Below, piece after piece: positions 5,918 to 64,000 of a stretch of 64,000 nt of DNA. The notes under the pieces are model-generated. The model saw only the letters and a program-made list of their open reading frames with translations. It was not told where the DNA came from and ran no database searches. This stretch comes from a bacterium (GTDB lineage Bacteria > Patescibacteriota > Patescibacteriia > JACQRZ01): contig JAHFJA010000002.1 in NCBI GenBank assembly GCA_023246095.1, positions 39,489-103,488 of the forward strand, written 5' to 3'. Position 1 is the first letter of the stretch. The number at the start of each line of letters is the position of its first letter. The position numbers and the translations under genes are program-made.

Positions 5918-8593
5918 CTATTCCTTCGCCTTCTCTATCGCATCCTTATGATGTCTATGATAAAAGTCTCGGAAAAACACCTCCGCCTCTTCACGAGAAT
6001 CATGATCTTTGGCAACCAATCCTTCCAGTCGGTGGCGTAATGCTACGCGCCCCGCCTCAGGAAGCAAATCGATCTTCTTTTCATAATAATTCAAAAATAT
6101 ATCAGTGAAATCTTTGATGTAATCCATGAACATTTCCTCGCCTCCATCATGGACCATTTTCCAGAGAACATACTCCGGAGTTCCTTCGACAAAGCCTTCA
6201 AACTCGTCAATTTCCAAAAATCCCGCTTCCTTTCCCGATGTATTGGCATACCATATCTGCCCGTTTGCATCCACATATACCCTATCGCCCGCATTGCCCA
6301 ACCGTAACCACTGACGGGGATTTTCAGGTACGACCGTAAAGCCCATCTGCTCATACACCTGACGGAGCGTCATATATACTTTCTGTTCCCCTTCTCCTTG
6401 ATCAGGGAACAGATCACCATGTGCCCAGACAATACGGCGCAATGCACCAAGCAACGTCTCTGCACGTTGAAGCTCAATATATACCATGCCCGCTTTTTCT
6501 ATTCCTCCCTTATCATGCCAGTAATTCCACATATGAAGCGCGCGTTCCCCCATTGCCGTTCCTTGCCAACGACTCAAGGCAAAGACGCGTGATAATTCAT
6601 GCAAGTTCTCGGGAGAAGGTTGATGACTTATATCCTCCAAAAACTTCATGCCGTCAAGTTTGACTGAGGCATATTCTTTCAATGTCTTTCCTTGGCGGAG
6701 CAAACTTTCCACCAGTGCAATGGACGCTTTCTCTCTTCCGAGGCCGTGTGCCACACTAATAGTTCCTTCAGGATTGGTTACCACGCTCACATATTTTTCA
6801 TACAGTTGGGTATACAAATCGCAATATGTCGTGTGATGGCGTTCCATCGAAAGTACCTCCCCTCTTAATCGGGCGTGAAACTCAAGCATGGTCACCATAT
6901 CGCGCATATGAGAAAGATCCACCATCTCATCAAGAGTACGGCGTTGAGAAAACGACATTTCCGGCACTCGACACGCTTCTATACCAAAACTTCCTCTCAA
7001 TCCCTCCCGCAACACACTCAAGTCAGCACTGGCAGCAGCAGCGATACGCACCGCCTGATTAGGATCCCTATCAGTCGCGACACCCAACGGCGCACCCAAC
7101 AATCCGGCAATCGTGGATCCTTCCAATGTAACCATATTCAACAACGTCCGAAATTCGAGTTGCATATCGAGGTTATCCGTCCCATGTCGCAACCATTCTT
7201 CGTATTTCTCATATCGTTCTTCCGAAATCAAATGCCCAATGCGTGTTTGTGAAAACATTGCCTGGCCTTGAAATACCCAAAATGAAAGCGACAAAAATTT
7301 CCGTTGAATCACCACATCGAGATGGATCGCTCCCAACATCGTAGCGATCTGACGTGTCACGACAAATACCGCGTACTCAAGACGTGCCTTATCGTATCGT
7401 TCTTTTGTTTCACGATATAGTTTTACCTGTTTGACGAAATCATCATGTTGGAACTCTTTACGAAATGATCCAAAAATACCTTCAAATGGTTTTAATACCT
7501 TGGCTGCGGCAACAAACGCTTTTTTTGCTTCAATATATTCCGAAGGAGTAGCGGAACGAGTAGCATCATCGATCACCATTGGCAACGCAGGGCGAGAAAC
7601 AACCGATATTCGTGGCCGTGTACGGGGTACTTTCACTACCTCCTGAGGTTTGACTTCGGCAACAGGAGGAAGGATAACAGGGGCAGGTGTCGCTTTTTCA
7701 ACTACTTCCAGTGTCACCGCCTCTAATACCGTTGGTTCGGGTTCTTTGACTGGCACTAATCCTTGTCCGCCTTCTATAGTCAATACGGGTGTATGAGGAA
7801 CTTCCAAAAGCAGTGGTTTCTCTTCCTCTTTGGGTGTTTCGACGGGGGCGGCAACAACAACAAGGGCAATCTCTGTTTCTGGTTCTGACGAGACAAGTAC
7901 CTCTTCGATGACCTTCTTCGCACCATTATGCCCATGCATCGCAACCTTTTGCGCCCTCGCTTCTTCTTTCTGTTCTTCATCACTGCCGAATTTCTTCACT
8001 AACTCATGGGATATGACATCATCAAGAAATTGATCTCTCACCACCTCTCTCCATTTTTTATATGCCTTATTGCTAAAATTCTGATGCGCTACGGCCATTT
8101 GGAAACTCTCTTTCTCCTCTGGACTTTCAAAGGCTTGAACCGACACGTCCACCCGGGAAGGATGAATATACAACTCAGTGGTAGGTGCTCCGTCAATCGA
8201 GTACGAAAAATACACATGATCGGGTGCTTCTTTTTGTAGGTGAAGCTTATAATTATCTCTCTGTCCCAAATCATGTCGAATGCGCTCTGCATATCCTAAT
8301 ACCTCGTCACGAAAATCAGCATCAGAAAATTTTTCCTCCAACGAAGCGGGGATTTTTATATGTGTCTCTGTCGTCTGAGCGGTATGTTCCAAACCACGCT
8401 GTTCTTCGAAATCTTGAAATATACAAAACGCGTTGGCGTCTTTATTCAAGGAATAGCCTAGAAAATGTTTTGTCGTTATAACACTGCCGGAAGCCATTTG
8501 TGGAGCAACGCCTGTCTTTGAAGGGCGGCCACGGCGGCGTTTGAGAGCAATGTCACTTCCGATAGGGGCGGAAAGTGTTGATGTTGATGGCAT
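5918..8593 (-). CDS. Hypothetical 891-aa protein with N-terminal AT-hook-like RRRGRPSK motif, a central Pro/Glu/Val-rich linker and a large C-terminal region
   Basis: Long ORF; AT-hook GRP core read from the translation; no catalytic motif recognised. Confidence 0.55.
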   Translation of the reverse strand: MPSTSTLSAPIGSDIALKRRRGRPSKTGVAPQMASGSVITTKHFLGYSLNKDANAFCIFQDFEEQRGLEHTAQTTETHIKIPASLEEKFSDADFRDEVLGYAERIRHDLGQRDNYKLHLQKEAPDHVYFSYSIDGAPTTELYIHPSRVDVSVQAFESPEEKESFQMAVAHQNFSNKAYKKWREVVRDQFLDDVISHELVKKFGSDEEQKEEARAQKVAMHGHNGAKKVIEEVLVSSEPETEIALVVVAAPVETPKEEEKPLLLEVPHTPVLTIEGGQGLVPVKEPEPTVLEAVTLEVVEKATPAPVILPPVAEVKPQEVVKVPRTRPRISVVSRPALPMVIDDATRSATPSEYIEAKKAFVAAAKVLKPFEGIFGSFRKEFQHDDFVKQVKLYRETKERYDKARLEYAVFVVTRQIATMLGAIHLDVVIQRKFLSLSFWVFQGQAMFSQTRIGHLISEERYEKYEEWLRHGTDNLDMQLEFRTLLNMVTLEGSTIAGLLGAPLGVATDRDPNQAVRIAAAASADLSVLREGLRGSFGIEACRVPEMSFSQRRTLDEMVDLSHMRDMVTMLEFHARLRGEVLSMERHHTTYCDLYTQLYEKYVSVVTNPEGTISVAHGLGREKASIALVESLLRQGKTLKEYASVKLDGMKFLEDISHQPSPENLHELSRVFALSRWQGTAMGERALHMWNYWHDKGGIEKAGMVYIELQRAETLLGALRRIVWAHGDLFPDQGEGEQKVYMTLRQVYEQMGFTVVPENPRQWLRLGNAGDRVYVDANGQIWYANTSGKEAGFLEIDEFEGFVEGTPEYVLWKMVHDGGEEMFMDYIKDFTDIFLNYYEKKIDLLPEAGRVALRHRLEGLVAKDHDSREEAEVFFRDFYHRHHKDAIEKAKE

Positions 8594-16647: not shown

Positions 16648-17706
16648 CTAACATCCCCAACTATTTGCTTTCAACTTATTATAATTCCCTTCAACCCGAG
16701 GGGCATAAACCCGAGTTTCCTTATACCCGGTGTTAACCTCGCATTCCCACAACGTCGTCCCAGAACAAGACGAACTGAGTCTATTTGCACCTGGCCCGCC
16801 ATTATATGCTGCTGCTAAATACTTAATCTGTGTCATATCACATCCAGATTGTGAATTAGTCGACCCACCATTGCAACCACCCGTTTTCAAGTCGCTCAAG
16901 TAAGCAGCAGCAGTGCGTGCATTGGTAAGTGGGTCAAAACTACTGCCCCCCGTAATATTATGACGGGACCTCACATCCGCCGCAGTGGCGGGCATAAGTT
17001 GAATAAGCCCCTGTGCCCCAACGGAACTTTGCGCGTTGGGGTTACCGCTTGACTCTGCAAACATAAATGCCTTTAAGAGTGTGCAATCAACACCCGGAAA
17101 TTCCGTGCTTGCACTTTTTAAGGCCGTATCGTATGTTGTGAGATTTTGAGATATACTCGCACTACCAACACCTTTCTCACCCCCACCACTACTTTGTTGC
17201 TGACGAATTTCCGCCACAGTAATGTCCATCTTTTGTATTGCCCCCAAACGTATCACTGGCCATTGAACCAGAACCGGATTGATAAGGTACAAGATAGAAT
17301 AAGCACCGAGAGTAAGAACGAGACCAATCAATGCATTCGATATAATTTTTATTGCTTTTTGTGTTTGCCCCGAAGAGCCTCTTGAAGTCATCCACTGCAT
17401 CCCTCCTACCATTAGCATTACCACGGCGATTATAGCCACCGCAGTAATTAACCACGCGTACAATTGTCCAAAATAGGTGGCCATACCTGTTGCCACAATA
17501 GTATTACCATCAGCAGTGATAAGTTTAACCTTTTCATCATACCCGTGAAAAGGAACTTGAAGTTTAAAATCGGGAAACAAACTCGAAGATTTTATAGCAT
17601 CATCAACAGCAAATACGCGATGAGGTGTAGCAATCCCCACAAAAAACAATATAACGATAGCCAACACCCCCACAAGGAAATATCTTACAAAAGACGAATG
17701 ACGCAT
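16648..17706 (-). CDS. Fusion protein: N-terminal TrbC/VirB2-like pilin module joined to a C-terminal SLT-family lytic transglycosylase domain
   Basis: Pilin-type motif MLMVGGMQWMTSRGSSGQTQKAIKIISNALIGLVLTLGAYSIL; SLT motif AESSGNPNAQSSVGAQGLIQLMPATA. Confidence 0.7.
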   Translation of the reverse strand: MRHSSFVRYFLVGVLAIVILFFVGIATPHRVFAVDDAIKSSSLFPDFKLQVPFHGYDEKVKLITADGNTIVATGMATYFGQLYAWLITAVAIIAVVMLMVGGMQWMTSRGSSGQTQKAIKIISNALIGLVLTLGAYSILYLINPVLVQWPVIRLGAIQKMDITVAEIRQQQSSGGGEKGVGSASISQNLTTYDTALKSASTEFPGVDCTLLKAFMFAESSGNPNAQSSVGAQGLIQLMPATAADVRSRHNITGGSSFDPLTNARTAAAYLSDLKTGGCNGGSTNSQSGCDMTQIKYLAAAYNGGPGANRLSSSCSGTTLWECEVNTGYKETRVYAPRVEGNYNKLKANSWGC

Positions 17707-17815: not shown

Positions 17816-17891
17816 TGGTGCGCCCAGAGGGATTTGAACCCCCGACCGTTTGCTTAAGAGGCAACTGCTCTACCAACTGAGCTATGAGCGC
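17816..17891 (-). tRNA. tRNA-Lys (anticodon CTT), CCA encoded
   Basis: Manual cloverleaf fold of the reverse complement: GCGCTCA acceptor, GCTC/GAGC D-stem, anticodon loop CTCTTAA, T-loop TTCAAAT, 76 nt. Confidence 0.8.
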
Positions 17892-17951: not shown

Positions 17952-18028
17952 TGGTGCGCCCGGAGGGATTCGAACCCCCGACCCTCTGGTCCGAAGCCAG
18001 ATGCTCTAATCCACTGAGCTACGAGCGC
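17952..18028 (-). tRNA. tRNA-Arg (anticodon TCG), CCA encoded
   Basis: Manual cloverleaf fold: acceptor GCGCTCG/CGGGCGC, anticodon stem TCTGG/CCAGA with loop CTTCGGA, T-loop TTCGAAT, 77 nt. Confidence 0.75.
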
Positions 18029-18086: not shown

Positions 18087-19154
18087 CTATTCTTGAACCT
18101 CGTCTTGTTCTACATGCTTCAATGTTTCTGGGTGCACCATATATGATAAAGCTTCATCATGGCTAATCAATCCTTTTTTATATAAATCTTTCACACTGGT
18201 ATCCATAGTACACATCCCTTTTCCTGCATTTGTTTGTAACACTGTTTCAATCTGCTGCAACTTATTTTCCCGGATTAATGTCGCAACAGCAGGTGTATTA
18301 AGAAGCACTTCACGCACCGCAATACGCTGTTCGTTTTGCGTAACTACTAATCTTTGAGAAACAACTCCTTTAAGTGTCGTTGCAAGCTGCAAGCGAATCT
18401 GTGTTTGTTGGGAAGGAGGAAAAACATCAACAATACGGCTGATAGTTTCGGCGGCACTAAACGTGTGCAAGGTTGCAAACACCAAATGACCCGTTTCTGC
18501 CAATGTGATCGTTGCTGCAATAGTTTCTAAGTCTCGCATTTCCCCGACCATAATAACATTAGGATCTTGGCGTAAAACATACTTCAAACTTTCACTGAAC
18601 GATCGCATATCTTGTCCCAACTGTCGCTGCCGGATAATAGACTTATTGGGAGTAAAAAGAAACTCAATCGGATCTTCAAGAGTTATGATGTTTTCTCCGC
18701 GATTATTATTGATCGCATCAATCATGGAGGCAAGAGTAGTTGATTTACCACACCCTGCCGGACCCGTAATCAAGACAAGACCATTTTTCATGTTGATGAA
18801 ATTTTGTGCCGCCTCAGGAATATGCAAATCATCCATCGTGGGAATATCTACAGGTATAAGACGCGCCACAAGACCAACACTATTTTTTTCCCACATGAGG
18901 TTAATACGAAAACGCCCTACCCCTTCAATCTCGTGTGAAACGTCCAGCTCTTTTCCGTCATCAAAAAACTCTCTCTGCATTGGTGTCAGAACACTATACG
19001 CAAGATCTTGTACCGAACCTGGGGTCAGCACGTCTTGTTCTTCGATTTCTCGCAGACGCCCACCTGCACGAATAATAGGCCGCTTCCCCACATAGAGATG
19101 CAGATCAGAAGCGGCATGTTGTTGTGCGTAGGTAAGTAATTGATTGAGCGTCAT
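18087..19154 (-). CDS. pilT: PilT-family type IV pilus retraction ATPase (likely start at MTLNQLL; ORF extends to 19208)
   Basis: Walker A LITGPAGCGKSTTLASMIDAIN and the N-terminal AASDLHL motif; ~355 aa. Confidence 0.8.
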   Translation of the reverse strand: MTLNQLLTYAQQHAASDLHLYVGKRPIIRAGGRLREIEEQDVLTPGSVQDLAYSVLTPMQREFFDDGKELDVSHEIEGVGRFRINLMWEKNSVGLVARLIPVDIPTMDDLHIPEAAQNFINMKNGLVLITGPAGCGKSTTLASMIDAINNNRGENIITLEDPIEFLFTPNKSIIRQRQLGQDMRSFSESLKYVLRQDPNVIMVGEMRDLETIAATITLAETGHLVFATLHTFSAAETISRIVDVFPPSQQTQIRLQLATTLKGVVSQRLVVTQNEQRIAVREVLLNTPAVATLIRENKLQQIETVLQTNAGKGMCTMDTSVKDLYKKGLISHDEALSYMVHPETLKHVEQDEVQE

Positions 19155-19223
19155 AGACTTGAGTATAATTGGTAGTGATAGCCTGACACGAGGGAAAACG
19201 GTTGTCAATCCGACTACTCGTAC

Positions 19224-51207: not shown

Positions 51208-51564
51208 TTACTCCTTTATTGGGCTAAGAAGTTTCTTCAATGTCGGTATATCCTCCTTCAATGTGTCCCACAGTATTGGTAACTCAATGTCGTCGTAGTG
51301 ATGAATCAATTTATCTCGCATTCCTGCCATTTCTCTCCAAGGAATATCCGGATATTGTTTTTTCATCGACAATGAAATACGTTTTGCCGCTTCACCGATT
51401 ATTTCAATACGCCGAATAATAGCATCTTGTGTTTTAGTATCACCAGCGAAAGAAGTTTTCTTTACACCCTTAATATAACTTTCTATCGCATAGATAGAAT
51501 CGGCAATATGCTTAACGTATAACTGATCCCTCTTAGAAGAGTCGTTTTTTTTCTTTGTTGACAT
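51208..51564 (-). CDS. hepT: HepT-family (DUF86) toxin RNase
   Basis: Rx4HxY motif RDKLIHHY; 118 aa; overlaps the upstream MntA-like gene. Confidence 0.75.
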   Translation of the reverse strand: MSTKKKNDSSKRDQLYVKHIADSIYAIESYIKGVKKTSFAGDTKTQDAIIRRIEIIGEAAKRISLSMKKQYPDIPWREMAGMRDKLIHHYDDIELPILWDTLKEDIPTLKKLLSPIKE

Positions 51565-53617: not shown

Positions 53618-56215
53618 TTAAAAATCTGAACCAATACAATCCTTGTCAAAATATATTCCACCAGGACTAAACAAATTACCATTTTCGTACCTAGCACTAC
53701 ACGTCATATATCGATACATCGATGGAAGACCCGAACCTACTGTTGCTGGGTGCATATCTATTTTTAATATACCGAGATCCATTTCAAGAGCTACTCCAAC
53801 AAATAAGTTTCGACCTACATATGTCTCATTAGCTGAAGACAAATCTCCACCAGAAACAATATCGCCATCAGCAACAATATTACGCCCAACAGTAAGATCT
53901 CGCCCCACATCGGTATCTCTACCTGAATGTAAGCGATCTCCACCTATTTCTCCTGTTACACCAATATTCCCTCCGTGAGTAAGGTCAGTTAAACTACCTA
54001 TTAAAGCTATATCTTTCCCGTTTGCTACATATCCAGCATCAAGAACTGCTTGAAGATCACCAGATCCCCCTGTCCCTGTACCCCCCGGCCAATCTGTTCT
54101 ACAAACACCACCGATACAGACATTTCCCTTGAAATTTGCAAGCCCCTCAAACGTGGCTTGCTCTCTAAACCAAGAAAAATCGTCAACTTGTAGTGCATTT
54201 TGATGCAGCCCTCCAATCATAGGTAGTGCCTCAATTTGTAATCCACCTTGAAGGTTAATTTTATTGTTCGTAACAGCCCCCAGGTCTGTAACTTGTTGCA
54301 ACGTGCCCACTGAACCGCTTCCTGACGGATATGTGATAACGTTTGTAATTGACGTACTATCATTGGTATCTCCAAGATTATCTTTGCCACACCCCCAACC
54401 AGTGCCATTATACTTGAGTACTTGCTGGCTGGAACAGGAAGGCAACTGCATAGGTGATGGCCAACCAATTCTGCAATCTGTTCCTATACAAACCGTTGGT
54501 GCCTTTAATTGCATATTTGACGTAATAGCACCCGTAGCCGTGATTATACCGCCTGATACAATCTGGCCAGTAGTAGTAACGGAACCGGCACTTAGTGTAC
54601 GGATCTGCATATCTTGAGTTGGTGCCTGATTGTTAATAGCAAGAACATCACCAAGACCTTGATTTCCTACCTTAAGAACAAGCCGGTCCGGTGACCAAGT
54701 ACTGATACATGTTGCTCCATTAAGACATATCGAGGGTGTAGTCACCGAGGTTGTTGCAGTAATCGCTCCTGCGGTTAACGCCCCACTACCCGCATTAATA
54801 CCAGCTCCGTTGGTGACAATACCCCCATTGGCCGACAAAAGTCCCGTAAACGTCCCCGTACCTCCGCTAATAGGACCAGTTCCAGCATTAATACCAGCTC
54901 CGTTGGTGACTACACCCCCATTAGCAGTTAAGAGTCCTGTGATAGTGGTGGCGCCTGTAACACCAAGTTTACCTTTTAGTGTCGTATCATTCGATACATC
55001 TAACGTTCCATTGATGGCGGTATTGCCCCCGATAGTCAAACGATTCCCTGCTACAGGCGGTGTTCCGATACCGACCAATCCATTTATTTGAAGATTCCCA
55101 TAACTACCGGAAGGACTCGTCCCGTTTACACTCAATAAATCCCCCGTTGATGCGCCCTCCAGAACACTCACTGCATTAACTCCCGTCCCCACTCCGATCT
55201 GGTACTTTCCTGTTTTGGAAGCAGTACCCGACTGTATCGTCCCATTCACATCAAGTGGTACTGCGGGGTTTGCTCTCCCAATACCCACAAGTCCGTTTAT
55301 CGCAACATTAGTATAAGCATTAGAACCCCCAATTGGCCCGTTGATGTTCAGTAAGCTTCCATCAGCCACGGAAGATTCTATTGCCGACTTACCTCCAATT
55401 TGAAATTTTCCTAGATTATTAGCCGTACTTGATTGCACTGTCCCGTTTACATCAAGCGCTGTCGCGGGACTAACATTCCCGATCCCCATCCTATTATTCA
55501 AAAGCGTAACAAACTTGTTTATAATCCCCCCATTTTTTATGTCCAAATTCCCTGCGGCTTCCATATTTCCGTCAGTGTCGACGCGAAACTTTTTAACAAA
55601 CCCTTTTTCAAACAACAGAAAATTCGGCGTAGTAAGCGGGTTACCTGTAGAGAACGTATTATTATGCACATTTCCAAACAAAAGATTTGTCCCTGCAGCC
55701 AAGATAGGACCCGGGCTAATAGGGCCCAGAGCAACATCAAACACGGTACCCAAAGTTGTCATACCCCCGATAGCGGTTGTCTCATCCCCATCTTGGTCCA
55801 GCACGACCCCGTGTGTCGTAAAGCGTCCCTTGTTCGTCACGTCTTGAAGTGAAGGACTGATGTTCAGCCAATCACTTCGACAATCAGGACTCGAGGCAGG
55901 TCCAAAACAAAGAGTGGAAACAACAAGCCTGCCCCCTGCACTACTTCCCAACACCATATCACCCAAAAATTTGGAAGCATCGGCGCTAATATCAAGAACA
56001 CTTTTTAACCCCCCAGGACCAGCACCCGTATCTGGTTGTCCGTAGGGAGGAAGCTGTACCGGCTCTTTAAACGCTGCCTGTGCAACCTGGTGACCCATGA
56101 ACACGAACAAGGCAACCGCGACCACCAAAAAAGGAAGCAGTACTTTTTTTGTAGTGGCTATCCCCTTCTTCGACTTTAGTTCTGATGATGTTGATATGTT
56201 CTTTATCTCTTTCAT
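53618..56215 (-). CDS. Giant (865 aa) secreted Gly/Thr/Asn-rich repeat protein, beta-helix / fibre-like
   Basis: N-terminal signal/TM LLPFLVVAVALFVFMGHQVAQA; repeated GIGxxxPxxxLDVNGT(V/I)QS units; two ~31-aa tandem repeats NGG(V/I)VTNGAGINAG(T/S)G. Confidence 0.6.
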   Translation of the reverse strand: MKEIKNISTSSELKSKKGIATTKKVLLPFLVVAVALFVFMGHQVAQAAFKEPVQLPPYGQPDTGAGPGGLKSVLDISADASKFLGDMVLGSSAGGRLVVSTLCFGPASSPDCRSDWLNISPSLQDVTNKGRFTTHGVVLDQDGDETTAIGGMTTLGTVFDVALGPISPGPILAAGTNLLFGNVHNNTFSTGNPLTTPNFLLFEKGFVKKFRVDTDGNMEAAGNLDIKNGGIINKFVTLLNNRMGIGNVSPATALDVNGTVQSSTANNLGKFQIGGKSAIESSVADGSLLNINGPIGGSNAYTNVAINGLVGIGRANPAVPLDVNGTIQSGTASKTGKYQIGVGTGVNAVSVLEGASTGDLLSVNGTSPSGSYGNLQINGLVGIGTPPVAGNRLTIGGNTAINGTLDVSNDTTLKGKLGVTGATTITGLLTANGGVVTNGAGINAGTGPISGGTGTFTGLLSANGGIVTNGAGINAGSGALTAGAITATTSVTTPSICLNGATCISTWSPDRLVLKVGNQGLGDVLAINNQAPTQDMQIRTLSAGSVTTTGQIVSGGIITATGAITSNMQLKAPTVCIGTDCRIGWPSPMQLPSCSSQQVLKYNGTGWGCGKDNLGDTNDSTSITNVITYPSGSGSVGTLQQVTDLGAVTNNKINLQGGLQIEALPMIGGLHQNALQVDDFSWFREQATFEGLANFKGNVCIGGVCRTDWPGGTGTGGSGDLQAVLDAGYVANGKDIALIGSLTDLTHGGNIGVTGEIGGDRLHSGRDTDVGRDLTVGRNIVADGDIVSGGDLSSANETYVGRNLFVGVALEMDLGILKIDMHPATVGSGLPSMYRYMTCSARYENGNLFSPGGIYFDKDCIGSDF

Positions 56216-56327: not shown

Positions 56328-57038
56328 TCATCTCAAAACCGATTGATAGTTCTTAAGCAAAAATACTGTTTCGGTTTTGAGATGCGTCTTGACCCACGCT
56401 TTATTTTTTTCATTCAAAAGCTCACCTAATCCTTGCAATATCTGTGCATCTTTCACTTGTTCGACAAGAGAAATACAGTCATCGATGTACTCTTTCAGGC
56501 TTTTTGTCGTCCACTTCGCCAACACCTCTCTGTCAATATCCCAGTTATTTTTTGCAAAGTACCACACATCGTAGATATCACGCATTGCGGTTTCGCTTCG
56601 CAAGGTCAACGCAGCAAGCTTGCTTGCGAATAGATATGGCCTTTTGGCAACGAACATTGAAATCCCCAAATACTCTTTTAGTTCATATTCCTCCTTGAGG
56701 TCAGGCACCACCCTTCTTGTACTTATCTCAATTTTAATATTGTGGTCAGTATCCCCGTAAGAAAGAAGACAAAAGATAGTATTCATTTTTATGTAACTGT
56801 CTTTGATAATGCCATATCGCTCTAAAATCGTTTTAATCCTCTCGAAGATTAATGTATAAGTATCTTGATCGCCACCAATCACATCAAAATCCAAATCAAC
56901 TGAAAATCGTGGCAACTCGTAAAAAAAATATGCACACGTACCCCCTTTAAAACCCAAAAATGGCGCAATTGACACATCAGCATATATGTCTCGCAAAATC
57001 CGTCCCATTATGAGTTGGTGTTTTTCTCTATTCAGCAT
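56328..57038 (-). CDS. abiEii: AbiEii/AbiGii-family nucleotidyltransferase toxin (DUF1814)
   Basis: GFKGGTCAYFFY...RFSVDLDFD motif (GG...S.DLDF of the AbiEii NTase). Confidence 0.75.
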   Translation of the reverse strand: MLNREKHQLIMGRILRDIYADVSIAPFLGFKGGTCAYFFYELPRFSVDLDFDVIGGDQDTYTLIFERIKTILERYGIIKDSYIKMNTIFCLLSYGDTDHNIKIEISTRRVVPDLKEEYELKEYLGISMFVAKRPYLFASKLAALTLRSETAMRDIYDVWYFAKNNWDIDREVLAKWTTKSLKEYIDDCISLVEQVKDAQILQGLGELLNEKNKAWVKTHLKTETVFLLKNYQSVLR

Positions 57039-57642
57039 ATTTTTTTTGATATCTCCTCAATCGTCTGACGAGCTGTTCGTTCCCATATAGCGAGACCAAA
57101 TCAAAACACTTATCCCAATTAACAGGACGAAGATTATCAAAATGGTAGTCGGGAAAAAGATATATCATATCCAAAAATGCTCGCTCTGCCGAGGCAATAC
57201 CATACGTGCCTTTGTTCTCTATCCCCATTCCATTAAACAACACAGTGTCTTTTAATGTTCTAAATATGATAGTTGTCGAATCGATAACCATTGTTTTCGA
57301 CCAGGGGCCGGCAACAAAAATTGCGTCATAATACTGAAACACCATACCTTCTTCTCGAAGCACGGATTCAAAACTGATATATGAAGGAGTATAGATACTC
57401 GTCGCGAGTTCTTTTGAATTATAATTCTTATCTTTTGCAAACACACCACGAGTAAGGCGGATTAAGTCTCCTTGTTTAACATAATATGATATCTTTGATT
57501 TCAGGTTATTTCGATTCGTTTCTCCCCATAATAAAGCTAAATCCTTGCTCGTAAGGATTGTTTTGGGGGACTGGTACAATATAGCAATCAAGTTATCCAT
57601 GACGATATGTTTGATGGAAGTACTATACACTCTTACTTCCAT
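57028..57642 (-). CDS. abiEi: AbiEi-family antitoxin / transcriptional regulator (possible start at 57600)
   Basis: LIRLTRGVF (RG.F/Y) and PSYISFESVL motifs shared with the paralog at 60993; overlaps the toxin start by 11 nt. Confidence 0.65.
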   Translation of the reverse strand: MEVRVYSTSIKHIVMDNLIAILYQSPKTILTSKDLALLWGETNRNNLKSKISYYVKQGDLIRLTRGVFAKDKNYNSKELATSIYTPSYISFESVLREEGMVFQYYDAIFVAGPWSKTMVIDSTTIIFRTLKDTVLFNGMGIENKGTYGIASAERAFLDMIYLFPDYHFDNLRPVNWDKCFDLVSLYGNEQLVRRLRRYQKKYAE

Positions 57643-57811: not shown

Positions 57812-58294
57812 CTATACGTTAAAATGATCCAGATATCCTTTTATGTTTAGGGTCGTTTCGTCAAGTATTATGTTTTCAACAAGGACTTTGAAGACCCACT
57901 GAGTAATCCCCCACGCCGAGAGGATGACGGCCAAACCGAGAAGTGCGTATTTAAGGATGTGTTGTGCTTTTTCTACATTGTCTTTTTCTCCATGCGCGGT
58001 CATCCAAAGAAAGCCTGCATAGAGGATAAGGGAGACGGAGAGAATAGCAAGAAAACCAAGAATGTATTTAAGTACATTTGCTATCAGTGTAATTGGTTCA
58101 AGCTTATTCTGTGGTAAGGTGGTACCTTTAGTGCCCGTAGTATTCTTGAACTCACCTCCTGTGAGTATATCGGACAGAGACACCGCATACGAGGAAATAG
58201 GCATTACGGTCACGACCATACTACCCAAAGTAAAGGTCAGCATACCAATGGCAATAAACGTGCGTGCTTTTTGTATTGATGAAAATATATTCAT
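57812..58294 (-). CDS. TrbC/VirB2-like (T4SS-type) pilin paralog 1
   Basis: N-terminal signal/TM; C-terminal motif LYAGFLWMTAHGEKDNVEKAQHILKYALLGLAVILSAWGI. Confidence 0.7.
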   Translation of the reverse strand: MNIFSSIQKARTFIAIGMLTFTLGSMVVTVMPISSYAVSLSDILTGGEFKNTTGTKGTTLPQNKLEPITLIANVLKYILGFLAILSVSLILYAGFLWMTAHGEKDNVEKAQHILKYALLGLAVILSAWGITQWVFKVLVENIILDETTLNIKGYLDHFNV

Positions 58295-58296
58295 AT

Positions 58297-58779
58297 CTAG
58301 GTACCCGTAACGGCTTTAGCGATTGTTAAAAGAACCCAGTAGGTCAGTCCCTGTGCCGCAATGATAATTACTAAACCAACGACTGCCGTCTGGAGGAGAT
58401 CTTGTGCTTTTTTTACCTTCTCTTTTTCACCCTGTGCCGTCATCCAGAGATATCCTGCATAAAGAGTGAGAATGAGAAATATTATGCCAAGAAACCCAAG
58501 AAATATTTGAATAACACTCCCAATAATCATACCTATTGAGTTGGTAGGTGCACCCGACGTAGCTCCACAGGTCTTCCCCCATGCACCACCCGCCGTTTGG
58601 AGATAATCTAATATTCCTTTGTCAGCACAATCAGAGGTGGTAACAGCAAATCCATTAATACCCGCAAGAGCGAGGGTGAATACCATCGCACTCATGCCAA
58701 TATATCGAACCGCATGACTCATGCGCTCCGCGACGGACTTGGCTAAAATAGTATTTTCTTTTGTTACCTTCTTTTTCAT
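58297..58779 (-). CDS. TrbC/VirB2-like pilin paralog 2
   Basis: Motif LYAGYLWMTAQGEKEKVKKAQDLLQTAVVGLVIIIAAQGL. Confidence 0.7.
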   Translation of the reverse strand: MKKKVTKENTILAKSVAERMSHAVRYIGMSAMVFTLALAGINGFAVTTSDCADKGILDYLQTAGGAWGKTCGATSGAPTNSIGMIIGSVIQIFLGFLGIIFLILTLYAGYLWMTAQGEKEKVKKAQDLLQTAVVGLVIIIAAQGLTYWVLLTIAKAVTGT

Positions 58780-58812
58780 ATCGAAGATATCGCAGATGCC
58801 TTTCGGGTATTA

Positions 58813-59232
58813 TTACTTCACTCCCGTGATGGGTTTAAGGCTTTCCACCACGAAATAGGCAATGGCGTAGGAGGACAAAACGATGATAAGCCCAATCACT
58901 GCCGTCGTGATCATTCCGCGCGCTTTTTCTACCTTTGTCTTATCCCCTTCTGCGGTCATCCACTTGGTGCCGGCATAGAGTAAGATAATCAACAGCACGA
59001 TACCCATTATACCGAGAATCACTTTTATCACTGCGCCAATAATAAGCGGGACTGAGTCGGCGGTTGCCGTCACTTTTGCTGCTGTTTTAGCTTGGTCAAA
59101 TACAGAATTAATGTCATTCTTTGCTGCTATCTGAGTACGGGGAATATTGGTTGTCAGTGTTGTCGTCGCAAACGCACCACTTCCTGCCAACATACTTACC
59201 GAAACAATAATTGCAAAAAAAATCTTTTTCAT
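58813..59232 (-). CDS. TrbC/VirB2-like pilin paralog 3 (start at MKKIFFAII; ORF extends to 59388)
   Basis: Motif LYAGTKWMTAEGDKTKVEKARGMITTAVIGLIIVLSSYAI. Confidence 0.7.
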   Translation of the reverse strand: MKKIFFAIIVSVSMLAGSGAFATTTLTTNIPRTQIAAKNDINSVFDQAKTAAKVTATADSVPLIIGAVIKVILGIMGIVLLIILLYAGTKWMTAEGDKTKVEKARGMITTAVIGLIIVLSSYAIAYFVVESLKPITGVK

Positions 59233-59234
59233 AC

Positions 59235-59672
59235 CTAGTGAGCAGCGGTTATTGGCCCTACTAGTCGAGATAAGACGAAAGCAGTGATCGCGTAAGCAGA
59301 CAGCACAATGATAAGACCCAGTACCGCATGAAATATAAGACCGCGTGCTTTTCCTACCTTTGTCGTATCCCCTTCCGCCACCATCCATAGGATACCGCCA
59401 TACACGACAAGGATCAGAAATACCAAACCAAGAACAGATAAAATGATCTGGATGGAAACACCGATTATTGCGGGAAGTGTTTGTTCATCAAGATTATTAA
59501 AGCCAAAAAAACCTTTGAACCCTTCCGCGCTTTTATTCAAACTATCTAGCGGTGGGGTTGAAAGAGGAACAGCAAATACAGGGATTGGAATCCCTGGCGC
59601 AAAAACAAGAACGCCTGCTATCAGAGTTGATAGCAGGGCGCCGATGCCGACTTTGAAGAAAGTCTTGTTCAT
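59235..59672 (-). CDS. TrbC/VirB2-like pilin paralog 4
   Basis: Motif VYGGILWMVAEGDTTKVGKARGLIFHAVLGLIIVLSAYAI. Confidence 0.7.
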   Translation of the reverse strand: MNKTFFKVGIGALLSTLIAGVLVFAPGIPIPVFAVPLSTPPLDSLNKSAEGFKGFFGFNNLDEQTLPAIIGVSIQIILSVLGLVFLILVVYGGILWMVAEGDTTKVGKARGLIFHAVLGLIIVLSAYAITAFVLSRLVGPITAAH

Positions 59673-59696
59673 GGGAGTAAAATCTATGTGCGCAGC

Positions 59697-60113
59697 TTAT
59701 TTAATGATAGTCGCAGGAACACTAAACGCGTATTGTGCAATGCCCCATGCAGAGAGAATAATAACAAGCCCAATAACTCCCTGTATCAACATTTTTTGTG
59801 CGGATTCAACTTGTTCATCTTTACCTCCTGCGGTCATCCATTTGAAACCTGCAATCAAAATGATAATCACGGCGATAATACCGAGAAACCCAAGAACAAA
59901 ATTAATAACCGATACCACTGTCTCGTAGGGGGCAATAGCTGTCGAATCATGACCTGGCAATGGTGCATTTTTTGAATCGTTTAATCCATATCCAGTCGTT
60001 GGGACAACCGGCGCCGCCGCATTCACCATCGACACAGGCAAAAGTCCAAAACCTACCGTCAATACACTCGCGACAAGGAACGTTCGTACTACGTTTTTGA
60101 GAGTTGTTTTCAT
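59697..60113 (-). CDS. TrbC/VirB2-like pilin paralog 5
   Basis: Motif LIAGFKWMTAGGKDEQVESAQKMLIQGVIGLVIILSAWGI. Confidence 0.7.
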   Translation of the reverse strand: MKTTLKNVVRTFLVASVLTVGFGLLPVSMVNAAAPVVPTTGYGLNDSKNAPLPGHDSTAIAPYETVVSVINFVLGFLGIIAVIIILIAGFKWMTAGGKDEQVESAQKMLIQGVIGLVIILSAWGIAQYAFSVPATIIK

Positions 60114-60214
60114 ACAACGTACAAGGAAATTAAAAATAAATTCTTATTAAGTACTTATAGTATAGCAGACTGTTTTAAGAGCGGAAGTGAATTACTTTTT
60201 ACTACTTCATCTAA

Positions 60215-60991
60215 TCATAGTGGTGCCTGCGTAATGAACTCACGAAATAGTTCAACTTTCCGAACATCACTCGCATCGAACAAAAAAGGTTGTATGTCTC
60301 GTCCTAGTTCTTTAAAATCCAGTCCAGCCGTTGATTCCAACATTCTCGCGCGGAGCCCTTCCGGATCCCCTACCCCAATCTTTGCCTGAAGATACTCATA
60401 GTTCGGTTTGGTAAACGAGGAAAGGAAGACAATGTCATAAAAATCACGACCTTTCGCGCGCTTGCGATTTATCGCCGCAAACATCTTCTGAGAAAGTAAT
60501 ATGTCAGGAGGGGTAACGAAAATCTCCGAAAATACGTCAAACTTGTTAAGAATTTTCTTGTCTGGTTGATAAGAGACGCCATGAGCCAGACTGTCAACTT
60601 GTATGAGAATCTTTTCTTCCTGATATGGTGACAGTTCATTCACAAATAGTATATCAGGCAACCGCACTCGACACCGATAGGCGTCTTTACCAACAGTATC
60701 GATTTCAACGCGCAAACCTTGCCGCTCCAGTTCAACTTGGATGATGTGCGCAAGCTCTTCAAACTCGCCGTCTTCCAGATTGAAATTATCAAAGTCTAAA
60801 TCTTCCGAAAATCGGGTATTCCCATATATAATTCGTAACGCAGTACCACCCAAGAACGCCAGTTTAGCGGCATGCGGGGAAGCAAAAATAATTTCAAGGA
60901 TCTTATACTGAAGGTACTCTCGAAGAATACCCCGTTTGAATGGACGTAACGACTCCGGATATTGTTGTTCGATTTGCTGCAAGGTCAACAT
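60215..60991 (-). CDS. abiEii: AbiEii/AbiGii-family nucleotidyltransferase toxin (DUF1814)
   Basis: Canonical FLGGTALRIIYGNTRFSEDLDFD motif. Confidence 0.85.
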   Translation of the reverse strand: MLTLQQIEQQYPESLRPFKRGILREYLQYKILEIIFASPHAAKLAFLGGTALRIIYGNTRFSEDLDFDNFNLEDGEFEELAHIIQVELERQGLRVEIDTVGKDAYRCRVRLPDILFVNELSPYQEEKILIQVDSLAHGVSYQPDKKILNKFDVFSEIFVTPPDILLSQKMFAAINRKRAKGRDFYDIVFLSSFTKPNYEYLQAKIGVGDPEGLRARMLESTAGLDFKELGRDIQPFLFDASDVRKVELFREFITQAPL

Positions 60992-60992
60992 A

Positions 60993-61613
60993 TCATTTTG
61001 ATTGTTTAATCAACGAGATAAGATCTTCTGTTCTCCTTAGAAACCCCCTACTTGTATACACCATGGCATATTTCCGAAATTTTTTTATGTCGGCTTTTTC
61101 TAAAAACTCTTCACTATTGAACCTCCATTCGTAAAAATCTTCAGGCTTAATAATATTTGGGTGGAGATATACATAATCGAGCACTGCTTTTTCAATCTCC
61201 GCAATTTTGTACGTATATCCATTCTTTGTTTCCAGTCGATACCCAAAAAAATACTCCGCTTTAATTTGTTGGTATGAAAATTCCGTAACCGGTGACTTAA
61301 AACTGGCCGTCTTCTTACTGGACGCCGAGGTAATCGAATATACCCCCTCCGGAATCAAACCATAATACGACAACGCCATTTCAAAAGATACGTACGATGG
61401 CGGGTATAACCGATTTGCAATCAAAAACAATACCTCTTCGCTCAAAGGAAGATCGGCAAACATGTAATAACCACGACGCAGCTTCTTGATATATCCCTTA
61501 TTTTGCCACTCATTAAGCTGATGACGATAAAAAGTTGGATCGATCTTGCGAATATCCACCAAGGAAAAAACAGCAAAGTCTTTCAACTCTCCTTGTAATT
61601 GTTGGTACTTCAT
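60993..61613 (-). CDS. abiEi: AbiEi-family antitoxin (start at MKYQQLQ; ORF extends to 61679)
   Basis: KKLRRGYYMF and PSYVSFEMALSYYGLIP motifs; 1-nt gap to the downstream toxin. Confidence 0.7.
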   Translation of the reverse strand: MKYQQLQGELKDFAVFSLVDIRKIDPTFYRHQLNEWQNKGYIKKLRRGYYMFADLPLSEEVLFLIANRLYPPSYVSFEMALSYYGLIPEGVYSITSASSKKTASFKSPVTEFSYQQIKAEYFFGYRLETKNGYTYKIAEIEKAVLDYVYLHPNIIKPEDFYEWRFNSEEFLEKADIKKFRKYAMVYTSRGFLRRTEDLISLIKQSK

Positions 61614-61711
61614 AGATTTCCGAAACGTACTATATTTAGTACTCTTTGGAATTATAACAACAGAGAAAGAATCGCGCAAACGATATCATGTCTACACATC
61701 GGTGTGTTACT

Positions 61712-62068
61712 TTATTTCCCCAACAAAGCAGTGAGGAGGAATCTGACGATTGCGGCGCTGGCGAAGATGACCGCCATACCGATTGCGGCCCATATCATGG
61801 TATCCATGCCTTTTGTTACTTTTCCTTTATCCCCTGCCGAGGTCATCCAGAGAATACCGCCATAAACAAAGACCACCAGTGCGATTGAGCCGGACAGGCC
61901 GAGAAATGCATTGATAACCAAGCCAATAAATTCCGCGGGGCTATTCACTGCGAGAGGGTTTTCAAGAGTCACGTTACCAGCAGCGGCGTATGCGAAGTGA
62001 GTGGTAAGGAGGGTGATGCCGGCTATCGCTGTTGATAGGGTGACGGTACTATTTTTGGGGAGGGGCAT
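61712..62068 (-). CDS. TrbC/VirB2-like pilin paralog 6 (short, 118 aa)
   Basis: Motif VYGGILWMTSAGDKGKVTKGMDTMIWAAIGMAVIFASAAI. Confidence 0.7.
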   Translation of the reverse strand: MPLPKNSTVTLSTAIAGITLLTTHFAYAAAGNVTLENPLAVNSPAEFIGLVINAFLGLSGSIALVVFVYGGILWMTSAGDKGKVTKGMDTMIWAAIGMAVIFASAAIVRFLLTALLGK

Positions 62069-62086
62069 ATTTCTTGCTAATTCGAT

Positions 62087-63418
62087 TTAATAGATTATTG
62101 CGTTGGGACAGTCTACTTTCCATCTTTCATCCATGCCAATAAATTCTGTGGTTCCACAGGATGTCGCATTAGGACAGTAGAACTTATTATGAATTGTTAC
62201 GTCCAAAAACGCCTTATTTTGACAGTCAGTAGATGAGATAGACTCGCTGGTATGAAATGCAGTCCCTGATCCATTGGTATTATACGATACACAGCATACC
62301 CCATTTGAAATAACTACAGGAGCGCCACATTTCCCTGCGGTACACTGTCCTGTCTTACATTGTGCAGGGTCTGTACATGCTTCATTATCGTTCTTTTTTA
62401 ACTCACAAGTACCATTCGCAGGGTCGTTTGGGTTAGTACAGTACTGAGTCCCCGCACATTGCGCTTGCATTGGTGGAACCTCACATTTTTGACCCGTTAA
62501 TTTTATCGGCAACACACAGCAACACTTGTTTCCTGTAATAAGATATGACGATACAAACACTCGATTCTTGTTTGTCTGATTACTCGCGACCGCGTCACAA
62601 ACAGCGCTTCCAAAACCACAATCACTGTTAGCTATAAAATGATCCGTACTAGTACAAGACTCATCTTTACAATGATAGCAATACGGTGCTGCGCCCACCC
62701 CTGTACTAAACTCAAATTTTCCCGCACCACACATTTGCAATGCTTTGGCCGAGGCCTCGGCGTACGTTACATAACAGCCACCCTGACTTTGCGCTTGAGT
62801 TTGAGCTAGTTGTATCTCCGGCACCACCCCAATCGTTCCAAAGTGTATCGGCGTACAAATATCTGCTTGATATGACCATTTGCTAGTACCATTAAAAATT
62901 CCTCCCAGACGACCTGCAAGTGTCTTGTCGCCCGTTTCTTTTTTAATCAAACTAGTCATAACAAAGTTTACCGCCATCCAGCTGGTAAACACAATCACGA
63001 GCCCAATCGCGGCGTTGACCATCGTCTCTGTCCCTTTTGTCACTTTCCCTTTATCCCCCGCCGAAGTTAAATACTGAAAGCCCCCCAACACCACCATCAA
63101 AAGCGCGACACTGCCGCTTATGCCCAGAATAAACGTTGCGATATTGATAGCAAGCTGAATAAACGCATCCAAGGTATAATTACAACACAACATATCGCAC
63201 ATCGGGATGATCTTGCTTATAAGCTCACCTGATTGCGGTGCACACATTGCCGGTCCCCCTGCACATCCCCCAGGAACAAACGACGCTGTTGATTTACCCG
63301 CCAATGTCGAATCTGCCCACACCAGCGTAGCAGTAGCGCCGATGCTGGCGATAACCATAACGCCAAAAAGAAATGACAGTATGGCGAGGCGGTATTTTTT
63401 TGGATGACGAAGTTTCAT
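62087..63418 (-). CDS. TrbC/VirB2-like pilin module fused to a ~300-aa Cys-rich C-terminal ectodomain
   Basis: Motif LGGFQYLTSAGDKGKVTKGTETMVNAAIGLVIVFTSWMAV, followed by a domain with >35 Cys (CCCVLP, CTAGKCG, CCVSY and others). Confidence 0.65.
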   Translation of the reverse strand: MKLRHPKKYRLAILSFLFGVMVIASIGATATLVWADSTLAGKSTASFVPGGCAGGPAMCAPQSGELISKIIPMCDMLCCNYTLDAFIQLAINIATFILGISGSVALLMVVLGGFQYLTSAGDKGKVTKGTETMVNAAIGLVIVFTSWMAVNFVMTSLIKKETGDKTLAGRLGGIFNGTSKWSYQADICTPIHFGTIGVVPEIQLAQTQAQSQGGCYVTYAEASAKALQMCGAGKFEFSTGVGAAPYCYHCKDESCTSTDHFIANSDCGFGSAVCDAVASNQTNKNRVFVSSYLITGNKCCCVLPIKLTGQKCEVPPMQAQCAGTQYCTNPNDPANGTCELKKNDNEACTDPAQCKTGQCTAGKCGAPVVISNGVCCVSYNTNGSGTAFHTSESISSTDCQNKAFLDVTIHNKFYCPNATSCGTTEFIGMDERWKVDCPNAIIY

Positions 63419-64000
63419 TGCGAGTAGCTTTGAGAGATAGTCTGCTGGGCTCTATAGATGAGACCTGACATAACACTACGCTCGTCTGAGATATCTCCCC
63501 CTTTACTAGTCAACGCCGTGTCGATCATATCCAAAAACGCTTTTTCTGCTGACGACGCATCGAGGCCATGATACCAGTTATCCGCGATGAGAAGTTGCGA
63601 TGCAAACGGCCGTGTCACGTCATTTTTTAACTGTTCATCAATCATCGCGCGGAGCGCAGTCGGTGCTTGAGTTTTTTCCAAATAGGATTTTACATTCTCC
63701 TGTGCTGTGGCAAACATGATAAAATCCCATGCCATGTCTTGATATTTTGATTTATTGGATACTCCCTCTGCCCAGTAATTGGCGTATGTTTTCTTAAGTT
63801 CTGGTTGTTTTTGCGGTAACGGAGCGACTTCAAACTGCAAACCCGGTGCTTTGGTCTTGATTTGGGCTATGTGATACGAATACCCGAACATCATCGCAGC
63901 ACGTTCTTGGGAAAAACTCTCTACACTGTTTGGTTGGTCTTGATTCCATGTATACACATCTGCTTTGGTTACCCACGCAAAATCAGTATAGAAACGCAGT
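63415..64000 (-). CDS. 3' portion of a gene running off the window end; C-terminal region resembles an ABC-transporter extracellular solute-binding protein
   Basis: Reading frame open to the window edge; an AMMFGYSYHIAQIKT-type segment; identification weak. Confidence 0.3.
   Translation of the reverse strand, partial: LRFYTDFAWVTKADVYTWNQDQPNSVESFSQERAAMMFGYSYHIAQIKTKAPGLQFEVAPLPQKQPELKKTYANYWAEGVSNKSKYQDMAWDFIMFATAQENVKSYLEKTQAPTALRAMIDEQLKNDVTRPFASQLLIADNWYHGLDASSAEKAFLDMIDTALTSKGGDISDERSVMSGLIYRAQQTISQSYSQ

Follow-up and report, generated by a model that had tools for sequence, protein, structure and literature searches.

A tandem array of seven divergent VirB2/TrbC-like pilin genes, coupled to a sugar-type solute-binding protein gene, in a Patescibacteria chromosome

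Tandem arrays of genes for VirB2/TrbC-like pilins of type IV secretion systems (T4SS) have already been catalogued in hundreds of Patescibacteria genomes. The array considered here consists of seven genes at 57812-63418 of the window, by which is meant the whole 64-kb stretch of DNA analysed (contig JAHFJA010000002.1 of assembly GCA_023246095.1); it is a typical further example of these arrays and not a new class of system. In the most extensive survey, 3,035 Patescibacteria genomes were searched with the same two Pfam models that were used here, and 441 arrays of 2-11 genes were found, sometimes split by a non-pilin gene, with a paralog identity of 25% on average and 54% at most (Quinonero-Coronel et al. 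2025, Microb Genom 11:001409; PMC12102498). Only 1135 of 1948 assemblies had pilin genes in the vicinity of virB4, and relaxases were mostly absent. The pilin series in the T4SS cluster of the cultivated Southlakia epibionticum, the one species tested, is essential (Wang et al. 2023, Cell 186:4803; PMC10633639). Relaxase and coupling protein are lacking from the T4SS of Patescibacteria (PMC12102498, PMC10633639, PMC12857230), which has been singled out as possibly the first T4SS of a monoderm to form a pilus (2025 review, PMC12857230) and whose role has been called "completely unknown" (2024 perspective, PMC11665869). The novelty that the original prediction had seen in such arrays is thus overstated in view of these earlier descriptions (PMC12102498, PMC10633639, PMC12857230).

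The window array shares with the published ones the families PF18895 and PF04956, the tandem and co-oriented arrangement, a mean identity of about 25%, the occasional interruption, and a chromosomal location without a relaxase. It also agrees with the published definition of an array (tandem, at most one intervening non-pilin gene, low identity), except that the AbiE module which splits it counts two genes and goes slightly beyond that definition. Unlike the published arrays, this one and its related loci are coupled to a solute-binding protein (SBP) gene and are not adjacent to virB4, and the order of their paralogs is kept. Neither the SBP coupling nor the conserved paralog order was found in the papers searched, and both are modest, testable additions to the known arrays.

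Three other groups of proteins are close enough to be compared. VirB2, TrbC, and TraA of Gram-negative T4SS have, like the proteins described here, a long signal peptide, two helices around a short charged loop, and a small size. The window array differs from them in its monoderm-like host, in having seven divergent paralogs instead of one major pilin, in the lack of adjacent VirB machinery, in the variable N-terminal segments, and in one 283-aa Cys-rich extension; neither cyclisation nor a pilus is in evidence. The effector T4SS of Bartonella and Anaplasma also have several divergent tandem VirB2 copies in a nonconjugative, host-interaction setting. In these bacteria the virB2 arrays are part of complete virB operons or linked to them, and they are read as a source of antigenic variation, whereas the paralogs of the window are conserved by position. 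Finally, the Mbov_0395 family of a Mycoplasma integrated conjugative element (ICE) has a VirB2-like hairpin too, and it comes from a lineage that is wall-less or monoderm. The window genes score below the threshold of this family (NF045849), so they are not members of it, and they have no ICE context.

All seven genes, which had been predicted as co-oriented minus-strand genes of 118-443 aa, are present as open reading frames (ORFs) over the whole span:

62087-63418, minus strand: pilin paralog 1, 443 aa; PF18895 E 5.1e-11
61712-62068, minus strand: pilin paralog 2, 118 aa; PF18895 43.1 bits, PF04956 (TrbC) 32.2 bits
59697-60113, minus strand: pilin paralog 3, 138 aa; PF18895 39.2 bits, TrbC 26.8 bits
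59235-59672, minus strand: pilin paralog 4, 145 aa; PF18895 25.0 bits, own pilin-core profile 4e-28
58813-59232, minus strand: pilin paralog 5, 139 aa; PF18895 33.7 bits
58297-58779, minus strand: pilin paralog 6, 160 aa; PF18895 27.9 bits
57812-58294, minus strand: pilin paralog 7, the last gene of the array, 160 aa; PF18895 33.8 bits

The longest ORF of paralog 5 reaches 59388, and the ATG at 59232 was chosen as its start because a signal peptide, a 2-nt gap, and a public gene call of 139 aa (European Nucleotide Archive, ENA, contig) all fit this position. Consecutive pilin genes are separated by 18, 24, 2, 33, and 2 nt; the tight spacing expected for the array is therefore found in the measured gaps (2-33 nt). 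A 101-nt AT-rich spacer precedes paralog 3, and the GC content of the array resembles that of the rest of the window. The locus is best explained as an old operon-like cassette of the chromosome, of a kind that is typical for one lineage of Patescibacteria. Judged from the names of the nearest relatives, this lineage is probably the class ABY1 (Magasanik-, Uhr-, and Falkowbacteria).

The assignment of the seven products to the VirB2/TrbC-like (T4SS_pilin) proteins is confirmed at the level of sequence profiles. All of them match Pfam PF18895 T4SS_pilin with E values from 2e-5 to 4e-11, and six exceed its gathering score of 26.6 bits (27.9-43.1 bits). The seventh, paralog 4, remains below it with 25.0 bits, and its 76% identical ortholog in a close relative (L002) is annotated with PF18895. 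The PF04956 TrbC model, with a gathering score of 27.9 bits, is passed by paralog 2 (32.2 bits) and just missed by paralog 3 (26.8 bits), and the other five have no match to it. Paralog 2 is hence the most canonical VirB2/TrbC-like member. In addition, all seven align over 61-74 residues with NCBIfam NF045849, the pilin-like conjugal transfer protein of the Mycoplasma ICE, at 19-35 bits against a threshold of 40. The comparison with T4SS_pilin and TrbC models that had been proposed as a check of the family thus gives seven matches out of seven for the first and one above the cut-off for the second.

The C-terminal module that had been described as common to the array is recovered in the alignment as LYAG/VYGG-x-LWMT(A/S)-x-G(D/E)K-x-KV-x-KA...GL-x-I(I/V)L(S/A). 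According to hydropathy, each of the seven proteins begins with a hydrophobic segment, and a variable polar stretch leads from there to a pair of hydrophobic helices with a short loop between them in which Lys, Asp, and Glu are frequent; the anticipated combination of signal or anchor segment and two-helix module is consequently present throughout. An AlphaFold2 (AF2) model of paralog 2 forms a hairpin with helices at residues 44-78 and 81-116 and a predicted local distance difference test score (pLDDT) of 70-84.

The paralogs are strongly diverged. Only 5 alignment columns are strictly invariant among the seven, and the identity to the first paralog is 25-36% overall in the full-length alignment, while pairwise local identity over the core is 26-58%. 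At the DNA level, likeness is confined to 58-89 nt of the core, with 60-76% identity. Given this low DNA similarity, the expansion of the array must be old, and the age originally proposed for it is borne out by both protein and DNA identities.

The gene that heads the array lies across the end of the window:

63415-64000, minus strand: 3' part of a SBP gene (Pfam SBP_bac_8/SBP_bac_1) that continues past the window end

Its stop codon overlaps the start of paralog 1 (ATGA), and the array is translationally coupled to this upstream, sugar-type SBP gene. The full protein, taken from a longer contig (L001, 1203-2657), has 484 aa and an N-terminal membrane anchor, and its closest solved structures are sugar, maltose, and trehalose binding proteins of ABC systems. 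The same gene is the most conserved neighbour of the related arrays. In a wider scan of one genome per species, 73 related loci were collected, whose pilin-domain ORFs were then identified with a hidden Markov model of the pilin core. The SBP gene is contained in 47 of these loci; the proportion is 40 of 50 among the eligible loci, that is, those with at least four pilin genes and enough upstream sequence. Usually it directly precedes the array in the same orientation, at a distance of -4 to +10 nt. No ABC permease occurs among the annotated recurrent gene families that flank the related arrays, and none was seen near the window SBP.

The informatively named loci among the 73 belong mostly to Magasanik-, Uhr-, Falkow-, and Kerfeldbacteria, with Dojkabacteria and "Paceibacter" in addition. 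The first four are presumably all members of the class ABY1 of the Genome Taxonomy Database (GTDB). The number of pilin-domain ORFs per locus has a median of 6 and reaches 14, and at least four are present in 61 of the 73. Nearly all of these ORFs (443 of 445) are co-oriented, and the median gap between consecutive pilin genes is 27 nt. The first gene after the SBP gene is often longer than the others: in roughly every second array its product has more than 230 aa and combines a pilin domain near the N-terminus with a C-terminal extension, and the later pilin genes have a median length of 147 aa. In the close relatives, which comprise L006 and the loci L002 and L007 (GCA_964357385.1, Hainich groundwater), the common synteny reads SPP, SBP, long pilin, short pilin, and further pilins.

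Orthologs in these loci are 55-76% identical, compared with 26-58% between paralogs; for L002 the values are 66% for paralog 3 and 76% for paralog 4. Of 32 complete arrays, 21, 22, and 23 have the best match to paralogs 1, 2, and 3, respectively, at the corresponding position, and paralogs 4-7 match only later positions. That the order is kept over so broad a clade speaks for a structure of several distinct, co-assembling subunits rather than for interchangeable variants. Conservation along the proteins is uneven. The helical core is 70-81% identical between orthologs; for the putatively exposed N-terminal segment the value is 23-33% in five pairs out of six and 58% in the remaining one, whose segment is very short. 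The C-terminal extension of paralog 1 has an ortholog identity of 20-31%.

How ultra-small Patescibacteria draw resources from their hosts is an open problem. The reading preferred here, to which we give a probability of about 0.6, is that the seven paralogs are non-redundant subunits and that they co-assemble into a surface structure of the T4SS type, a fibre or a channel stalk, which the cell uses for contact or exchange with its host. It is favoured because every paralog corresponds by position to an ortholog in the relatives and because the genes follow each other so closely. Each pilin would be exported by its Sec-type signal or anchor segment and would insert in the membrane as a helix-loop-helix hairpin, with the fast-evolving N-terminal segment outside the cell. 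The 283-aa Cys-rich domain of paralog 1 would also lie outside, and the long subunit of position 1 would display it as a disulfide-rich domain. Six short subunits and one long subunit would then form a heteromeric T4SS-type surface fibre or channel stalk, which would be built by the Gram-positive-like (MPF-FATA-related) chromosomal T4SS that is encoded elsewhere in most Patescibacteria. The fibre would serve contact or exchange with the host cell, and not conjugation.

Several points weigh against this proposal. VirB4, VirB6, and VirD4 were found neither in the window, nor in the 10 kb beyond its start, nor within 10 kb of the array in the 73 loci, and for this lineage the dependence on a T4SS is purely what we infer. 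So far, none of the Patescibacteria has been seen to bear a VirB2-type pilus (PMC12857230, PMC11665869). Fold searches with the hairpin model recovered generic helical hairpins only, among them c subunits of ATP synthase and designed bundles, and neither VirB2 nor TraA structures; PDB sequences searched by profile yielded no match. Structure comparison being uninformative, the pilin assignment depends on sequence profiles and on the genomic association seen in other Patescibacteria.

The strongest alternative, which we consider unlikely, is that the array works as a variation cassette, whose paralogs take turns, singly or a few together, as the major pilin and so diversify the exposed surface to suit different host strains or to escape host defences. 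This is the reading offered by Quinonero-Coronel et al. 2025 (PMC12102498). It would account for the much faster evolution of the exposed segments and of the paralog 1 extension relative to the core, and it would resemble the multiple VirB2 copies of Bartonella or Anaplasma. However, both the order of the paralogs and their identity are kept throughout a clade of class rank, the genes lie close together with some gaps of 2 nt, and a translationally coupled SBP gene stands at their head. The DNA similarity among the paralogs is moreover too low for switching based on recombination, and invertible or repeat elements were looked for and not found. Distinct subunits that assemble together agree better with such a fixed arrangement.

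It is rather improbable that the hairpin proteins and the SBP form a membrane- or envelope-spanning assembly which is independent of any T4SS and imports host sugars or oligosaccharides without building a pilus. The operonic association of the SBP gene with the array in 40 of the 50 eligible loci speaks for this idea, as do the resemblance of the protein to sugar ABC binding proteins, the annotated recurrent neighbours without an ABC permease, and the absence of an adjacent T4SS ATPase. The T4SS_pilin hairpin also anchors enzymes (SLT and 3D domains) in the membrane, and an uptake role has been the subject of speculation in reviews (PMC12857230, PMC11665869). Conversely, VirB2-like proteins are without precedent as transporters, the SBP linkage could merely reflect surface functions that are co-regulated, and other Patescibacteria classes place their pilin genes beside virB4, as in the 1135 of 1948 assemblies mentioned above (PMC12102498).

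In a further version, about as improbable, the SBP and the ordered VirB2-like subunits of the conserved operon might constitute a heteromeric "feeding" fibre or conduit, in which the SBP captures host saccharides at the structure or delivers them through it. The coupling of the array to a SBP gene instead of virB4 offers the idea of an "uptake conduit" a concrete candidate partner. If it were true, the T4SS-pilin module would have been repurposed for nutrient uptake, possibly without a neighbouring T4SS.

A remnant or cargo of an ICE is very unlikely. The homology to conjugative pilins and the toxin-antitoxin and other mobile-type genes nearby could be taken in its favour, but the array is flanked by housekeeping genes, the SPP-SBP-array synteny is kept in relatives, and the GC content of the array is not distinct. 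Among the window ORFs of at least 100 aa, Pfam detected no VirB4, VirD4, VirB6, or relaxase and no integrase or coupling protein, and the only FtsK-family protein is a chromosomal FtsK with a gamma domain. Near the related arrays, too, gamma-domain FtsK proteins are the only large P-loop ORFs annotated. The twelve window ORFs that have no Pfam match contain no Walker A motif and show no polytopic profile. Further genes of the window include rpoB/rpoC and those for IleRS, a MurE-type ligase, FemAB, RuvA, IF-2, RbfA, ClpP, RNase Y, RecA, SSB, and EF-P. According to ENA and Logan contigs, the SPP and SBP genes follow beyond the window end, and ribosomal, IF3, SmpB, and sigma-70 genes lie beyond its start; these contigs showed no T4SS gene on either side. 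The sequence of the window itself also occurs in SRR14366756 and ERZ27297709. The original view that the locus is not a conjugative element is in keeping with this housekeeping context and with the missing VirB4, VirD4, and relaxase.

Ordinary type IV (PilA-type) pilins can practically be dismissed in spite of a PilT ATPase gene in the window (18087-19208), since neither a class III G/FTLIE signal nor N_methyl (PF07963) occurs in any of the seven proteins and their two C-terminal transmembrane (TM) helices are incompatible with a PilA architecture; the VirB2/TrbC type had been chosen correctly.

Paralog 1 differs from the other members of the array in its size. A signal or anchor segment is followed by a variable segment containing Cys, by the T4SS_pilin hairpin at about residues 81-160, and by the C-terminal extension of 283 aa, in which 25 Cys are counted and for which Pfam gave no match. 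The extension is almost an orphan, with 3 relatives among 1.84 billion representatives. The positional orthologs of paralog 1 are the proteins P0007, P0008, and P0009. The sole nonorthologous relative of the extension is a weak match, P0010 (863 aa), which carries four Cys-rich repeats of the Dickkopf_N type together with a Peptidase_M19 domain. From these sequence similarities, the extension may contain a Dickkopf-like disulfide-rich module. The AF2 model of the 443-aa protein, based on an alignment of 4 sequences, reached a mean pLDDT of 37, and a scan of the genome collection with the same 443-aa query returned no matches.

The claim that no conjugation genes lie in the 64 kb proved only partly right. 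VirB4, VirD4, and relaxase are indeed absent, but an eighth T4SS_pilin domain, fused to an enzyme, was recognised by Pfam at 40 kb from the array, close to two tRNA genes:

16648-17706, minus strand: 352-aa protein with a T4SS_pilin domain (residues 77-140) and a SLT lytic transglycosylase domain (residues 204-309)
17819-17891 and 17955-18028, minus strand: two tRNA genes between the PilT and the pilin-SLT genes

The pilin-SLT architecture recurs in many protein clusters of Patescibacteria, and some relatives carry a 3D domain instead of SLT. In another Patescibacterium (L080), the homologue P0041 is located within a cluster of PrgI, TraC-like, VirB4 (DUF87, AAA_10), DsbA, RadA, and RecG genes, which also holds a second pilin-domain gene. 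The fusion, a VirB1-like enzyme on a VirB2-like membrane hairpin, is thus the VirB1-equivalent of a Patescibacteria T4SS; in the window it adjoins no VirB4. These findings point to a general role of the VirB2-like hairpin in anchoring the envelope enzymes that belong to the T4SS of Patescibacteria.

Two other genes of the window were compared with T4SS components. The T2SSE ATPase at 18087-19208 was taken as a candidate VirB11 and rejected, since it agrees with PilT in length and motifs and is separated from the pilin-SLT gene by the two tRNA genes. A protein of 1358 aa (452-4528, minus strand) was compared with the large protein that heads the T4SS cluster of L080, and no similarity was found. 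This protein, which has a very acidic N-terminus, and one of 891 aa (5918-8593, minus strand) have no family match; they lack a Walker A motif, and neither has more than one hydrophobic segment.

The array is interrupted between paralogs 2 and 3 by an AbiE pair, and another pair follows it directly:

60993-61613, minus strand: AbiEi-like antitoxin inside the array, 206 aa from the ATG at 61613; NCBIfam TAA_AbiEi E 2.2e-7, below threshold
60215-60991, minus strand: AbiEii nucleotidyltransferase toxin inside the array, 258 aa; PF08843 E 6.5e-20
56328-57600, minus strand: second AbiEi/AbiEii pair, directly downstream of the array; AbiEii E 3.8e-20, AbiEi E 4.7e-8

A single AbiE interruption had been reported originally; the pair inside the array is real, and the second pair just downstream had been overlooked. 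The maximal ORF of the inner AbiEi extends to 61679, the 206-aa form is called in both ENA and Logan contigs, and the Pfam model AbiEi_4 matches it with E 0.077. Both AbiEii matches exceed their cut-off, and both AbiEi proteins score 31-33 bits against a NCBIfam cut-off of 150. Within each pair the genes adjoin or overlap and AbiEi precedes AbiEii, which is the arrangement of type IV toxin-antitoxin systems. The two pairs are only 28-35% identical to each other and were therefore acquired independently. The second has its own sigma-70-like promoter at 57669-57641 (TTGACA-17-TATAAT, 12 of 12 consensus positions).

In the closest relative (L002), the slot occupied by AbiE in the window array is filled by a Bro-N gene. 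The genes that interrupt the arrays of relatives (L011, L034, L038, L047, and L002/L007) encode PDDEXK_3, 23S_rRNA_IVP, DUF559, and Bro-N proteins. As these are small selfish or mobile types, the AbiE pair is best seen as an insertion and not as a component, and the interrupting genes in general as selfish insertions, with no role of the AbiE pairs in the pilin system. A search for flanking direct repeats as a possible mark of the AbiE insertion gave none. The largest intergenic gaps in relatives tend to follow pilin positions 2 and 3 (25 of 38 arrays). A strict insertion hotspot after paralog 2 was also considered and set aside, with weak support from 3 of 13 large gaps at that site in relatives.

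The stretch at 50-62 kb, where the GC content of the window is lowest (0.36-0.39), contains three or more toxin-antitoxin modules. A HepT-like RNase toxin gene is found in it at 51208-51564 (minus strand), and a public gene call puts a NTP_transf_2 (MNT-like) gene beside it. Downstream of the array and of the second AbiE pair, a protein of 865 aa (53618-56215, minus strand) has one N-terminal TM segment and long repeats rich in Gly, Thr, and Asn; it has no Pfam or NCBIfam match and looks like a large surface fibre or adhesin.

Two further observations concern the related loci. A type IV pilin-like protein with N_methyl and CarboxypepD_reg domains (L049, 89-1882) has homologues in 8 related loci, about four genes upstream of the arrays, so that in loci of the Magasanikbacteria type the VirB2-like arrays and a type IV pilin-like gene are neighbours. 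Moreover, many of the array-bearing records of metagenome-assembled genomes (L007-L079) are titled "uncultured Gammaproteobacteria bacterium", and single ones Planctomycetota or Acutalibacteraceae; these titles are probably placeholders or wrong labels.

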